Positions 15,810 through 22,621 of a stretch of 22,730 nt of DNA are shown here, piece by piece. The DNA is taken from the IMG/VR virus record IMGVR_UViG_2675903433_000018, positions 1 through 22,730 of that record, one strand, 5' to 3'. Source of the stretch: a virus. Its lineage: Duplodnaviria > Heunggongvirae > Uroviricota > Caudoviricetes. The notes under the pieces were generated by a model, which was not told where the DNA came from, did not search any database, and saw nothing but the letters and a program-made list of their open reading frames with translations. The position numbers and the translations under genes are program-made. Each line of letters opens with the position of its first letter. Positions within the stretch are counted from its first letter, which is position 1.

Positions 15810-16205
15810 ATGTTTAATGGCCTGACAGATGCCAAGGTAAACGCCTTACTGAACGACGCAAAACAAAAAGCTGCTAACCCTGGAACGAATGAAAATGAAC
15901 GTGCTATGGCTGTTGCAATTTGGGAGTTAGCAGAAGAAGTAAAGCGAAACCGCTTACTATACACTCGGGTTTACCAGCAATTTGATGGTGCGAGCTGGAT
16001 AGATATCGAAGAGGCTGAATATGCAACATGCAAAAAAGAAAAAAAGATTGTTCGGATTTTGCATAAAGCAGCAACCCCAATCACTGTAGAAATCCCCGAT
16101 CACAGATATTTCGAGAACGATGATCTACCAGGGGATGTGATTCGAATTATTGATGAGATACTTCATGAACAAGGCTTAACTGTTAAAATCACGCATAATA
16201 AATGA
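15810..16205 (+). CDS. cra: Cre-associated protein (cra-like), translationally coupled to cre
   Basis: 131-aa ORF, GAGGTGA RBS; stop overlaps the cre ATG (ATGA). Confidence 0.55.
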   Translation: MFNGLTDAKVNALLNDAKQKAANPGTNENERAMAVAIWELAEEVKRNRLLYTRVYQQFDGASWIDIEEAEYATCKKEKKIVRILHKAATPITVEIPDHRYFENDDLPGDVIRIIDEILHEQGLTVKITHNK

Positions 16206-17233
16206 CTAATTCGTTAACCGTTCACCAAAATTTGCCTGCATTGCCGGTCGATGCAACGAGTGATGAGGTTCGCAAGAACCTGATGGACATGTTCAGGGAT
16301 CGCCAGGCGTTTTCTGATCATACCTGGAAAATGCTTCTGTCCGTTTGCCGGTCGTGGGCGGCATGGTGCAAGTTGAATAACCGGAAATGGTTTCCCGCAG
16401 AACCTGAAGATGTTCGCGATTACCTTCTATATCTTCAGGCGCGTGGTCTGGCAGTAAAAACTATCCAGCAACATTTGGGCCAGCTAAACATGCTTCATCG
16501 TCGGTCCGGGCTGCCACGACCAAGTGACAGCAATGCTGTTTCACTGGTCATGCGACGGATCCGAAAAGAAAACGTTGATGCCGGTGAGCGTGCAAAACAG
16601 GCGCTGGCGTTCGAACGCACTGATTTCGACCAGGTTCGTTCACTCATGGAAAATAGCGATCGCTGCCAGGATATACGTAATCTGGCATTTCTGGGGATTG
16701 CTTATAACACCCTGTTACGTATAGCCGAAATTTCTAGGATCAGGGTTAAAGATATCTCACGTACTGACGGTGGGAGAATGTTAATCCATATTGGCAGAAC
16801 GAAAACGCTGGTTAGCACCGCTGGTGTAGAGAAGGCACTTAGCCTGGGGGTAACTAAACTGGTTGAGCGATGGATTTCTGTCTCTGGTGTAGCTGATGAT
16901 CCGAATAACTACCTGTTTTGCCGCGTCAGAAAAAATGGTGTTGCCGCGCCATCATCCACCAGCCAGCTATCAACTCGCGCCCTGGAAGGGATTTTTGAAG
17001 CAACTCACCGATTGATTTACGGGGCAAAAGATGACTCTGGTCAGCGATACCTGGCCTGGTCTGGACATAGTGCCCGTGTCGGTGCCGCGCGAGATATGGC
17101 CCGCGCCGGAGTTTCAATACCGGAGATCATGCAAGCTGGTGGCTGGACCAACGTAAATATTGTCATGAACTACATTCGTAACCTGGATAGTGAAACGGGG
17201 GCAATGGTGCGCCTGCTGGAAGATGGCGATTAG
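16202..17233 (+). CDS. cre: Cre tyrosine recombinase
   Basis: 343-aa product nearly identical to canonical Cre (MTNSLTVHQNLPALPVDATSDEVRKNLMDMFRDRQAF…LLEDGD); a few substitutions relative to my remembered reference (S2T, L4S, E to D in …AFS[E/D]HTWK…, A to S in …IAEI[A/S]RIR…, A to S in …APS[A/S]TSQL…). Confidence 0.97.
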   Translation: MTNSLTVHQNLPALPVDATSDEVRKNLMDMFRDRQAFSDHTWKMLLSVCRSWAAWCKLNNRKWFPAEPEDVRDYLLYLQARGLAVKTIQQHLGQLNMLHRRSGLPRPSDSNAVSLVMRRIRKENVDAGERAKQALAFERTDFDQVRSLMENSDRCQDIRNLAFLGIAYNTLLRIAEISRIRVKDISRTDGGRMLIHIGRTKTLVSTAGVEKALSLGVTKLVERWISVSGVADDPNNYLFCRVRKNGVAAPSSTSQLSTRALEGIFEATHRLIYGAKDDSGQRYLAWSGHSARVGAARDMARAGVSIPEIMQAGGWTNVNIVMNYIRNLDSETGAMVRLLEDGD

Positions 17234-17249
17234 CCGTTCATTTTTACTT

Positions 17250-17266
17250 GATTGCTCTAATTATTT
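17250..17266 (+). promoter_or_regulatory. C1-operator-like site downstream of cre / upstream of the next gene
   Basis: ATTGCTCTAATTATTTG, about 14/17 to consensus. Confidence 0.4.
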
Positions 17267-17283
17267 GATATTTATGGTGACAC

Positions 17284-17595
17284 ATGCGGAAGGATTTCAA
17301 AATAGACGGAAAATATGTGGTGCTGTCTGTAAGCTCTCAAATTCAGTCACCATCTGTCATTGTCACCGTAAAATTGAGCGATAGGATGCCTGATATCGAC
17401 TCGATATCTGTTGCGTTCCCCGTTAAAAGCATGCGGAGTGCTGAACATTTTGTGATGAATGCAACGGAGGAGGAAGCGCGGCGAGGGCTTACTAGAGTGA
17501 TGGCGGAATTTGGCGAACTCCTGGGTAAGGTAAACAATGCCCTTTCAATCAGTTCAGCAAGATCCAAAGCGTTAACAGCTTCCATGATGAAATAA
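17284..17595 (+). CDS. Hypothetical protein; positional candidate for P1 c8
   Basis: 103-aa ORF between cre and ref; weak RBS; assignment by position only. Confidence 0.45.
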   Translation: MRKDFKIDGKYVVLSVSSQIQSPSVIVTVKLSDRMPDIDSISVAFPVKSMRSAEHFVMNATEEEARRGLTRVMAEFGELLGKVNNALSISSARSKALTASMMK

Positions 17596-17599
17596 AAAA

Positions 17600-17618
17600 G
17601 CCTGGCAAGGAGCCAGGC
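17600..17618. terminator. Hairpin with adjacent A/T run (terminator-like; orientation ambiguous)
   Basis: GCCTGGC-aagga-GCCAGGC; the T-run is on the minus-strand side (AATAAAAAA on plus). Confidence 0.35.
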
Positions 17619-17735
17619 TGCACAAAAGAGCGGGTTTGTATTCCGCATCCAATCAATCAAGAAAGAGTATAGCACACAGGTACTGAAGTGAAAAAATGTG
17701 ATTCTCGATTAACAAAATATCTACCATTGCTCTAA

Positions 17736-17759
17736 TTGATTGCTATAATTGAGCCGCAG
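17736..17759 (+). promoter_or_regulatory. C1-operator-like site overlapping a TATAAT -10 upstream of ref
   Basis: ATTGCTCTAATTGATTG followed by TATAAT at 17754-17759; ref is known to be C1-controlled in P1. Confidence 0.45.
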
Positions 17760-17809
17760 TTTTTGTCAACTACGAAGACGTTGCCATTACTTAACTCCTT
17801 GACATCATT

Positions 17810-17835
17810 GGCGGCCATTAGGCCGCCTTTTTTTT
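17810..17835 (+). terminator. Intrinsic-terminator-like hairpin in the ref leader, immediately 5-prime of the ref start codon
   Basis: GGCGGCC-atta-GGCCGCC followed by TTTTTTTT, ending 6 nt before ATG 17841. Confidence 0.5.
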
Positions 17836-17840
17836 GCCAT

Positions 17841-18401
17841 ATGAAAACAATCGAACAAAAACTTGAACAGCGCCGCGAGTGGCAGAAGGCAGCCAGAGAA
17901 CGAGCGATCGCTCGGCAACGGGAAAAGTTGGCTGACCCCGCCTGGAGAGAATCGCAATATCAGAAAATGCGGGATTCTATCGACCGCCGTATCGCTAAAC
18001 AGAAAGAGCGCCCACCAGCCAGCAAAACGCGGAAAAGCGCGGTAAAAATAAAATCTCGTGGCTTGAAGGGGAGAACACCAACGGCGGAGGAACGGCGCAT
18101 CGCCAATGCTCTTGGCGCTCTCCCCTGCATTGCCTGCTATATGCATGGAGTAATATCTAATGAGGTGTCTCTGCACCATATCGCCGGTCGTACCGCGCCG
18201 GGTTGTCATAAAAAGCAATTGCCACTTTGTAGATGGCACCACCAGCATGCAGCTCCGGCTGAAGTAAGAGAAAAATACCCATGGCTGGTCCCTGTTCATG
18301 CCGATGGTGTGGTTGGAGGCAAGAAAGAATTCACCTTGCTGAACAAGTCAGAGATGGAGTTACTGGCTGATGCCTATGAGATGGCAAACATCATGCACTA
18401 A
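17841..18401 (+). CDS. ref: Ref, recombination enhancement function (HNH-type nuclease)
   Basis: 186-aa product MKTIEQKLEQRREWQKAARERAIARQREKL… matches P1 Ref from memory; the ORF track extends upstream to 17736 but ATG 17841 gives the expected length. Confidence 0.85.
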   Translation: MKTIEQKLEQRREWQKAARERAIARQREKLADPAWRESQYQKMRDSIDRRIAKQKERPPASKTRKSAVKIKSRGLKGRTPTAEERRIANALGALPCIACYMHGVISNEVSLHHIAGRTAPGCHKKQLPLCRWHHQHAAPAEVREKYPWLVPVHADGVVGGKKEFTLLNKSEMELLADAYEMANIMH

Positions 18402-18437
18402 TAAATATATTATTTTTAATGATAAATGATTGACAAC

Positions 18438-18460
18438 TGACAAGTGACTTCAGTCAGAAT
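18438..18460 (+). promoter_or_regulatory. Putative Lpa-dependent late promoter element (shared AAGTGACT motif)
   Basis: ACAAGTGACTTCAGTCAGAAT upstream of the 18590 gene; the same core GTGACT recurs upstream of pacA (9357) and of the putative portal gene (19773). Confidence 0.35.
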
Positions 18461-18552
18461 CATCACACGCCCGGTACGGATGGATCCCTTTTCAAATATT
18501 CCATGGACGGCACAGTCTGAGTACCGGGCGCTACCTTCAGTTGTATTGCTAA

Positions 18553-18578
18553 GCCGCCGCTGGTGGCTTTTCTTTTTT
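18553..18578 (+). terminator. Terminator-like hairpin in the leader of the downstream gene
   Basis: GCCGCC-gct-GGTGGC (one G-U pair) followed by TTTTCTTTTTT, ending 12 nt before ATG 18590. Confidence 0.4.
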
Positions 18579-18589
18579 GTAGGGGCGCT

Positions 18590-19231
18590 ATGGATAAGAA
18601 AATATGCGTTGTTTCAATGAGCGTCGGCAAACCGGCGTCAATGACTGCTGCATGGATCAACAATGAGCTGATCATGGCTGAGCGGACCAGCTACCCTGAA
18701 CGCCGCCGCGATATGGAACTCCAGCTGCTGCGCGAATTGCGAGAAAAAGAGGAAAAGGGTTTTATCGTGCTGGTGGAAGAGGAAAACAGCTTTATTACCG
18801 GTCGAGTTGGCCAGCGTGTAAGGTTGCGCGATCCCTTCATGAACGGCAGGCCGGTACTAATTGAAGCAATGCAGATTTACAAGGAGCTGGAACGCCAGAA
18901 AGCGATCAAGTTACCGCGCAAGGAATCCGGCAAATACATCCTCCACCAAAGCATCTTCGATTCCGAACACGATAAAAAAGGCGATGAATTTTTCAACATC
19001 AACTGGAGCGAAATAACAACAGAGCATGTTCTGACATTGTTATGCTGTTTCGCAACGGAATACAACAATGTTGCCAGCGCCGACTACATCAGGGCAATGG
19101 CTGGAGAAGTTGAGGCCCGCCAGGAACCATCGTTACTAAGACCTCTGATTAACATAATTCACGGAACCCAAACACTGGCGCAAAAACAAGTACCACAAGG
19201 GGAATTGACGGGTAAAGGTAATTATCTCTGA
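18590..19231 (+). CDS. Hypothetical protein; positional candidate for P1 mat (particle maturation)
   Basis: ATG at 18590 with AGGGG RBS (ORF track begins at GTG 18563); follows ref as mat does in P1; no recognisable catalytic motif. Confidence 0.5.
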   Translation: MDKKICVVSMSVGKPASMTAAWINNELIMAERTSYPERRRDMELQLLRELREKEEKGFIVLVEEENSFITGRVGQRVRLRDPFMNGRPVLIEAMQIYKELERQKAIKLPRKESGKYILHQSIFDSEHDKKGDEFFNINWSEITTEHVLTLLCCFATEYNNVASADYIRAMAGEVEARQEPSLLRPLINIIHGTQTLAQKQVPQGELTGKGNYL

Positions 19232-19270
19232 AAGATGCCCGGCGATAGACCGGGCAAAAGGGCGGAAAGT

Positions 19271-19519
19271 TTAATCTGCATTCAGGAGCAATGCGTTATC
19301 TATGATGATCTGCTCCCATTCTTCGAATGCCCGATCGCGGACCCCCTGGGGAACACTGTTTGTTTTGAAATCAACGACTGTCCGCCATTTCCCGTCCGGA
19401 CGGTACATGCGCAGAGCTTTACTGCCCCCTTCCCTTCGCACCTCAACGTTATGCTTGTCAGCAAACTCTTGTAATGCTCGTAGCGTCCCATGCTTTACTG
19501 TGTAGTATCGCTTTTTCAA
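19271..19519 (-). CDS. Small 82-aa basic protein of unknown function on the opposite strand (start TTG)
   Basis: Minus-strand ORF MKKRYYTVKHGTLRALQEFADKHNVEVRREGG…, GGAGAG RBS; lies in the short interval between the mat-like and portal-like genes. Confidence 0.4.
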   Translation of the reverse strand: MKKRYYTVKHGTLRALQEFADKHNVEVRREGGSKALRMYRPDGKWRTVVDFKTNSVPQGVRDRAFEEWEQIIIDNALLLNAD

Positions 19520-19764
19520 GTTTTCTCTCCAGCCTGTGCCAAGGCTTTGACGTCGAAATTATGTCCTATTCGGTTTTATTGTATCAGATAGTGTGGACAT
19601 ATTATTTCACGTCCGGCGTAGTCGGTCATAGCTTTTGCCTTCCACCTTTTCCACGCCGTATCTAATCGGCGCCCGATGAAATGTTATTGCACTAATATAT
19701 TTCAATATTTCGCTGACACTTGAACAGCGAAACACCCCCATAGATAGCTTGTTCATTGGTAATC

Positions 19765-19790
19765 CTTAACAAGTGACTAGTGTTAAATTC
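19765..19790 (+). promoter_or_regulatory. Putative Lpa-dependent late promoter element upstream of the portal-like gene
   Basis: AACAAGTGACTAGTGTTAAAT, same AAGTGACT core as at 18443, followed by a TAAAT -10-like element. Confidence 0.35.
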
Positions 19791-19822
19791 CGTTCAAACA
19801 CGATGCGAATTATTCTAATTAA

Positions 19823-22553
<2,731 letters not shown>

Positions 22554-22598
22554 CCACCAAAAATAACCCCGGCGGCTGCCGGGGTATCTGAAATCACT

Positions 22599-22621
22599 GG
22601 CGGCCGAAAGGCCGCCTTTTT
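22599..22621 (+). terminator. Rho-independent terminator after the protease/scaffold-like gene
   Basis: GGCGGCC-gaaa-GGCCGCC followed by TTTTT; preceded by a second hairpin CCCCGGC-ggct-GCCGGGG (22567-22584). Confidence 0.7.

Follow-up and report, generated by a model that had tools for sequence, protein, structure and literature searches.

What does a terminator do when it stands between a promoter and the gene that this promoter serves? The question is raised by a stretch of viral DNA of 22,730 nucleotides (nt) (IMG/VR record IMGVR_UViG_2675903433_000018; the whole stretch is called the window below), in which one GC-rich hairpin with a T-run lies directly before the start codon of ref and another before that of mat. 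The window belongs to a P1-like phage-plasmid: positions 17600-18700 are 100% identical to the Escherichia coli plasmid NZ_CP058684.1 (89.6 kb), and 17200-19300 share 97.4% identity with phage RCS47 and 94.8% with phage P1. An original prediction, made by a model from the letters of the window, had proposed that such a placement reflects attenuation or antitermination control, or expression of the two genes by read-through only. The reading that we favor, with a probability that we put at about 0.58, is that both hairpins are intrinsic (Rho-independent) terminators acting as attenuators within the 5′ leaders of plus-strand RNA. That transcription stops at these sites, how efficiently it would do so and whether this is regulated are what we infer here from sequence.

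Both hairpins show the anatomy of intrinsic terminators, i.e. a GC-rich stem of ~5-10 bp, a short loop and a U-tract directly after it, and each has a promoter annotated in P1 on its upstream side and a start codon on its downstream side (Table 1). Hairpin 1 pairs GGCGGCC at 17810-17816 with GGCCGCC at 17821-17827 (seven G-C pairs) around the loop ATTA and has a folding energy of -15 to -16 kcal/mol (z = -2.7 against shuffles); it runs into T8 at 17828-17835, and GCCAT then leads to the ref ATG at 17841-17843. Hairpin 2 pairs AAGCCGCC at 18551-18558 with GGTGGCTT at 18562-18569 around the loop GCT (eight pairs, five of them G-C and one G.U; -11 kcal/mol) and is followed by TTCTTTTTT at 18570-18578, a Shine-Dalgarno (SD) sequence at 18581-18585 and the mat ATG at 18590. 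Neither has a T-run on the minus strand. Under a strict definition (stem of 7 bp or more, 5 or more of them G-C, loop of 3-8, and 7 or more T among the 9 bases that follow), five terminator-like sites were counted on both strands of the window, hairpins 1 and 2 among them. In 100 dinucleotide shuffles of the window the average count was 0.03 and the highest 1; on the 89.6-kb plasmid as a whole, 10 sites fit the definition. Thus, the two hairpins of the original prediction are present essentially where it had put them and occur far above chance, with one correction of detail, as the T-run before the ref ATG ends 5 nt upstream of it and not 6. Hairpin 2, which we locate at 18551-18578, does lie between the late promoter motif and the mat ATG as had been claimed, and this motif, seen at 18443, matches the -22 box that the P1 record assigns to LPmat (18442-18450).

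In the ref leader, transcripts from the promoter P2ref, and any read-through from cre-c8, carry hairpin 1 whole, and when the P2ref leader is folded its terminator stem pairs with a probability of at least 0.995. The claim that the hairpin leaves ref no room for an SD also stands: over the 22 nt that precede the ATG, no anti-SD pairing is better than -2.4 kcal/mol, and this one uses an AGG within hairpin 1, 17 nt away; hence ref has no usable SD. No short open reading frame (ORF) of the leader-peptide type was found in this leader. From 17752 to the ATG a single base (17793) differs from P1, and hairpin, T8 and spacer are identical. In a set of 82 P1-like loci from IMG/VR, the stem of hairpin 1 is unchanged in 76, and loop (ATTA, ATCA or TAAA), T-run (7-10) and spacer (GCCAT, GACCAT or ACCTT) vary. 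The only substitutions seen in the stem are C-to-U opposite G, which keep the pairing in plus-strand RNA and would lose it in the complementary strand; covariation was not obtainable for hairpin 1, as its stem is nearly invariant.

The arrangement is found again at a larger evolutionary distance. In a lineage with a Ref that is 57% identical and with co-directional upstream genes, a C1-type operator (ATTTGCTCTAATAAATTA) is followed after ~30 nt by GCCGCC-tccg-GGCGGC with T7 and then by ref, the distance from T7 to the ref ATG being 19 nt in one locus (L189) and ~95 nt in another (L093). The hairpin differs from that of P1, and it is therefore the order of operator/promoter, terminator and ref that is conserved. 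A lineage with ~70% nucleotide identity and a divergent upstream gene (L003-L005) has no hairpin and carries an SD-like sequence; the comparison comprises three lineages only. These observations fit a ref terminator that would both insulate the gene from upstream transcription and attenuate its own operator-controlled promoter.

Attenuation of ref has been reported before. The title of Windle, Laufer and Hays (J Bacteriol 1988;170:4881) states attenuator-antiterminator control of ref and, going by this title, hairpin 1 is the same element as the published P1 ref attenuator and is already known. Ronayne et al. (2016) describe Ref as highly toxic, with induction during lytic growth and with an action of C1 and H-NS on the ref 5′ region; ref is also induced upon C1 inactivation. 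With a toxic product that is repressed by C1 and H-NS, a layered and tight control of ref is plausible. What the present analysis adds for ref is a survey of how the element varies in nature, the observation that a distant lineage has the same design with another hairpin, and the position of the predicted P1ref start inside the stem. The H-NS site of the P1 ref regulatory region, CGATAAA (PMC4713147), reads CGATTAA in the window (17701-17715).

The mat leader is ~112 nt long, counted from Pmat/LPmat to the U-run of hairpin 2, with no annotated or predicted promoter between terminator and ATG and 11 nt from the U-run to the ATG. Four helices were predicted by RNAalifold from 16 diverse leaders, a covariation sample that represents about 6 lineages; hairpin 2 ends a larger conserved structured leader RNA, which the original prediction had missed. 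In the long stem of the 5′ domain, three pairs change on both sides (GC/AU, UA/CG and GC/AU), pairing holds in 97.9% of cells against 33-48% with slid partners, and the covariation score was reached by none of 500 shuffles. By these compensatory changes the mat leader can be classed, on sequence grounds, as a structured cis-regulatory RNA. Moreover, among P1-like phages nucleotide diversity reaches 0.084 in the mat coding sequence (0.153 at third positions) and 0.041 in ref but only 0.009 in the mat leader, with 0.005 for hairpin 2, so that the leader lies ~10-fold under the coding sequence that it precedes.

Relatives with a Mat that is 73%, 57% or 41% identical were found in Salmonella/Citrobacter-type elements, Pantoea, Erwinia and metagenomes. 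At identities of at least 57% the full architecture is kept, from the promoter (-35, AAGTGACTT-like -22 box, -10) to the start codon, in the order of a long stem GCCCGGYRC...GYRCCGGGC 7-8 nt past the -10, the block GGACGGCAC, a variable spacer, GCCGCC-loop-GGYGGC with a U-run, the SD and ATGGAYAARAA. In the 41% relative (L091), terminator, U-run, SD and start are kept and the 5′ domain has diverged. A covariance model of the leader found one copy per genome, always ahead of mat, and did not recognize the L091 leader. Pattern scans of IMG/VR and metagenomes for further mat leaders gave only known or decayed P1-like copies. Two metagenome contigs, one of them 1.14 Mb long, hold a decayed leader fused to internal mat sequence (L314, 4637-4738; L321, 3769-3950); these are apparently remnants of P1-like elements within larger replicons.

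Hairpin 2 could be taken for a mere terminator of ref, and this was rejected, as it is kept in loci with a divergent gene upstream of mat (L087-L089) and beside transposon insertions. The insertions of P7 (Tn3) and SJ46 (Tn1721-like) lie at ~18380, upstream of Omat, and leave the unit of operator, promoter, leader and mat intact. They are two independent events, ~20 nt before the ref stop codon, and the Tn1721-like unit of SJ46 carries blaCTX-M-27. Run lengths between the hairpins and the start codons also vary, with T5-T7 and G4 or G5 for mat and T7-T10 followed by GCCAT or GACCAT for ref; the strength of the SD and its spacing differ accordingly, and translation may be tuned in this way.

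Is this leader translated? The records of P1 (AF234172) and P7 (AF503408), where positions 2716-2829 and 7672 onward correspond to 18480-18592 of the window, give a 250-aa Mat (AAQ13981 in P1) that begins at an ATG equivalent to 18480 and runs through hairpin 2; RCS47 and the Prokaryotic Genome Annotation Pipeline (PGAP) give a 213-aa Mat from 18590. At 18582-18585 the window reads G4 against G5 in P1 and RCS47, and this breaks the long frame. Of 79 loci, 35 have the two ATGs 111 nt apart and in frame, and the other 44 have them 110, 109 or 112 nt apart; the G-run is G4 in 35 and G5 in 27 sampled loci, and both states occur in finished genomes. Ten substitutions in 18480-18589 show no third-position excess, and there is no coding constraint upstream of 18590. 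All Mat homologs, at 91-41% identity, start with MDKKIC, and most are 213 aa long. Before the ATG at 18480 the SD is weak (-3.0 kcal/mol), the UG of this codon takes part in a helix, and the block GGACGGCAC is read in different frames among lineages. We thus rejected the 250-aa Mat, on the frame breaks (44/79), the lack of codon bias and the frame-inconsistent conservation, and also a leader-peptide attenuator of the trp/his type encoded by the 18480 ORF, on the lack of codon-position bias, the weak SD, the paired AUG and the frame-inconsistent blocks. Evidence from frame, substitutions, N-terminus and SD therefore assigns the Mat start to 18590, with 18467-18589 as untranslated leader. This is the start that the original prediction had chosen against the P1 GenBank annotation, and frame breaks, MDKKIC and 213-aa homologs bear it out. 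The reference records of P1 and P7 hence place the Mat start 110-111 nt too far upstream, and the protein in them should be changed from 250 to 213 aa.

Table 1. Coordinates in the window of the genes, promoters, operators and leader elements of the cre-mat region
Feature	Position	Strand	Details and basis
cre	16202-17233		Homology with the annotated P1 record AF234172
c8	17284-17595		Homology with P1 AF234172
Promoter P2ref	17721-17749	+	Homologous to P1 AF234172 feature; -10 TATAAT 17744-17749; TG 17741-17742 (extended -10); poor -35 17721-17726
C1 repressor operator Oref, ATTGCTCTAATTGATTG, overlapping P2ref	17726-17742	+	P1 annotation; conserved in 82 P1-like loci
Upstream hairpin of ref leader, GUUUUUGU / ACGAAGAC	17759-17779	+	Single-sequence folds; RNAalifold on 32 distinct leaders
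Promoter P1ref (predicted sigma 70)	17781-17808	+	Consensus promoter scan and P1 annotation; -35 TTGCCA; 16-nt spacer; -10 CATCAT (17803-17808) after TG
Hairpin 1 with T8, intrinsic-terminator-like attenuator of ref leader	17810-17835	+	Terminator scan, folding, shuffles
ref (RecA-dependent HNH nuclease, 186 aa)	17841-18401	+	Pfam PF16786, E = 2e-51; P1 and RCS47 annotations
C1 operator Omat	18392-18409	-	P1 annotation; retained beside transposon insertion points in P7 and SJ46
Pmat/LPmat	18430-18460	+	P1 annotation; -35 TTGACA 18430-18435; Lpa -22 box AAGTGACTT 18442-18450; -10 CAGAAT 18455-18460; same elements ahead of distant mat homologs
5′ domain of mat leader RNA	18467-18550	+	RNAalifold and pair counts; long stem 18469-18477 with 18521-18529 encloses helices 18481-18484/18500-18503 and 18509-18511/18515-18517; then variable spacer
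Hairpin 2 with U-tract, intrinsic-terminator-like end of mat leader	18551-18578	+	Terminator scan, folding, conservation
mat SD, AGGGG	18581-18585	+	Anti-SD pairing -5.6 kcal/mol; G-run 18582-18585 polymorphic (G4 here, G5 in P1)
mat (213 aa)	18590-19231	+	MDKKIC N-terminus, homolog lengths, broken upstream frame

In the mechanism that we propose for ref, transcripts from the C1-repressed P2ref and read-through from cre-c8 would mostly stop at hairpin 1. The only sources of toxic Ref would be the transcripts that get past it and those of P1ref, a weak predicted promoter whose RNA would begin too late to include the whole 5′ arm. Little translation would be expected either, with no SD and only a U-rich tract ahead of the ATG. 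For mat, the dual promoter Pmat/LPmat would start an RNA whose first ~60 nt fold into the conserved three-helix domain; most transcripts would end as the ~112-nt RNA, and Mat would come from those that read through. The conserved 5′ domain most likely sets the level of this read-through and, as no alternative pairing was found in the leader, a factor acting on the RNA or on RNA polymerase would be likelier than a switch between two structures. A further step is more speculative, and we hold it possible but rather doubtful: the mat leader may be an undescribed RNA class specific to P1-like elements, in which the 5′ domain makes read-through conditional (e.g. on the Lpa/SspA-dependent late mode, or on Mat) and the ~112-nt RNA accumulates as a phage small RNA. 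If so, the leader would set the early versus late dose of Mat, as a P1 counterpart of lambda 6S RNA/tR' that works without a Q-like protein. The mat leader with its built-in terminator is in neither Rfam nor the P1 record, where it is annotated as coding sequence, and gives tests of the 'dual regulatory control' of mat a concrete starting point. No mention of ref or mat was found in the P1 RNA-seq papers that were available.

Several points weigh against the two hairpins being attenuating terminators. Taken alone in a short context, hairpin 2 is no more stable than shuffles (z = 0.15), and its significance thus comes from the U-tract and from conservation rather than from folding stability alone. 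Both terminator stems show one-sided changes only (for mat G.U/G-C and A-U/G.U), so that their pairing is unproven by covariation, and the mat loop varies freely. Neither constrained folding nor the alignment fold gave a conserved alternative (antiterminator) pairing for the mat leader. In the ref leader the sole antiterminator candidate, 17780-17786 with 17809-17815 (7 bp, two of them G.U), is weak, at -13.8 against -23.4 kcal/mol in constrained folding and with no covariation. Regulated read-through is therefore as yet without a structural basis in either leader. The predicted start of P1ref, at ~17814-17817, falls within the 5′ arm of hairpin 1, which begins 2 nt past the P1ref -10, and hence P1ref transcripts could not form hairpin 1 and would bypass it; a promoter mapping downstream of the hairpin had been named in the original prediction as evidence against it, and predicted P1ref comes close to this. 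Mat is reported to be an essential control protein for particle maturation, and a strong terminator ahead of mat must thus be leaky or overridden. A hairpin similar to that of ref, ACGCCGG-ttaa-TCCGGCGT with T8, also lies upstream of the UUG start of E. coli rnd, and this element, in the work of Zhang and Deutscher, reportedly acts in translation rather than in termination. On balance, attenuation, antitermination or expression by read-through, as originally proposed, fits all computed data, the 1988 title, the order kept in the 57% Ref relative and the mat terminator kept down to 41% identity; the support is only partial, given predicted P1ref inside hairpin 1, no conserved antiterminator for mat and a weak one for ref.

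The rnd parallel is the model for what we regard as the main rival, in which hairpin and U-run are elements of translation or mRNA stability and not terminators: the U-tract would recruit ribosomes via S1, for ref offsetting the missing SD, and the hairpin would expose the U-tract or protect the mRNA. This agrees with a ref that has no SD and a U8 ending 5 nt before its AUG, and with a mat U-tract directly upstream of the SD, and A/U-rich enhancers stimulate translation even without an SD (PMC3592434, citing Zhang and Deutscher 1989 on rnd). However, GC stems of 7-8 bp followed at once by 8-9 U are the anatomy of strong terminators, the title of the 1988 ref paper reports evidence for an attenuator, and in L093 the ref-leader terminator lies ~95 nt from the ATG, too distant for ribosome binding. 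We thus consider this rival unlikely; a role in translation and one in termination are also compatible with each other. For ref there is also a simpler account, namely that hairpin 1 serves as terminator or insulator of the cre-c8 unit, which is expressed in lysogens, and that ref is expressed from P1ref with no regulated attenuation. Hairpin 1 is indeed the first plus-strand terminator past c8 (the hairpin at 17599-17619 has its T-run on the minus strand only), the P1ref -10 abuts it, and ref-leader terminators are found where the upstream genes are co-directional (P1 type, L189, L093) and are absent where these are divergent (L003-L005). Against this stands the strong C1-controlled P2ref upstream of hairpin 1, with an operator upstream of the hairpin in the distant lineage too, so that operator-controlled transcripts must meet the terminator. 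In addition, ref is induced upon C1 inactivation, P1ref is only predicted, and the pattern of upstream genes comes from three lineages. An insulator alone therefore strikes us as unlikely.

Two further accounts concern mat. The ~112-nt leader might be the gene of a trans-acting small RNA, with mat expressed only incidentally, through termination that leaks. A promoter of its own serves this leader, and in all lineages a stem begins 7-8 nt past the -10. Its terminator is strong and ends in a long U-tail, one stretch is single-stranded and rich in A/U, and conservation is very high even in unpaired parts. Yet it is always directly upstream of mat and occurs once per genome, a search within the plasmid gave complementarity to the rest of it not above chance, and no Rfam family matched, which together make this improbable. 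Least credible, and in our view close to negligible, is that hairpin 2 lies inside the Mat coding sequence (the 250-aa form) or inside a leader peptide that controls termination. An ATG at 18480 is conserved in most lineages, its equivalent in P1 (G5) is in frame with Mat, and AF234172 and P7 annotate the long form; the frame is nevertheless broken in 44 of 79 loci, the window included, by indels of 1-2 nt in the T-run and G-run. Attenuation by the two terminators thus remains the reading that we prefer.

As for the surroundings, the best Rfam 15 covariance-model matches over 17200-19300 had E = 0.09 or worse, far under the gathering score, and were driven by the terminators. The spacer between c8 and ref (17592-17694) carries on its minus strand a promoter-like site with an extended -10, TGCTATACT (-10 at 17671-17666), and ~40 nt later a strong terminator at 17619-17599 with a T-run (-15.6 kcal/mol). 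This promoter-terminator pair would yield a leftward RNA of ~65-70 nt, in divergent orientation to P2ref; P1 and P7 both conserve the region, which AF234172 leaves unannotated and for which Rfam gave no match. For the Mat protein, a Pfam search matched no family, and the AlphaFold model (mean predicted local distance difference test score of 52) was unusable for assigning function from the fold. Downstream, at 19232-19831, two small ORFs (19235-19474 and 19474-19665) stand between mat and prt/pro; the block res-mod-lxc-ulx-darB, which lies between mat and prt in P1, is absent from the window. After pro, a convergent pair of strong terminators lies at 22567-22616, and the plus-strand one (22599-22616) has the stem GGCGGCC/GGCCGCC of the ref hairpin with the loop GAAA. 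P1-like phage-plasmids are common carriers of resistance genes in Enterobacteriaceae, and the dosing of Ref and Mat bears on the stability of their lysogens.

Among known systems, the leader of E. coli rnd (RNase D) resembles that of ref in having a GC hairpin and exactly eight U near the start codon. It differs in the interval between U8 and the start, which is 24 nt with an SD-like AAGAG in rnd and 5 nt with no SD in ref. For mat, a likeness in layout exists with lambda PR', which makes the short 6S RNA ended at tR' and is read through after Q has modified RNA polymerase. In both cases a late-type phage promoter would give a short terminated RNA just upstream of the genes served, and these would depend on read-through for their expression. 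Unlike lambda, P1 late promoters are activated by Lpa, with no Q-like antiterminator or qut site known or found. The mat leader also includes a 5′ domain whose fold is conserved, and it serves one gene, whereas lambda PR' serves a whole late operon. The S10 leader with L4, bgl with BglG and its ribonucleic antiterminator (RAT), and the Bacillus subtilis trp leader with TRAP share with mat a structured leader RNA and an intrinsic terminator just before the first gene. In these attenuators a bound factor decides between termination and read-through; those of the RAT and TRAP types need an antiterminator that overlaps the terminator, and none was found for mat. A last comparison is with put of phage HK022, a cis-acting processive antitermination RNA. 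Its two stem-loops are without sequence similarity to the mat leader, but both are folded RNAs just past a phage promoter, and like put the mat leader could act on RNA polymerase without a switch of structure.

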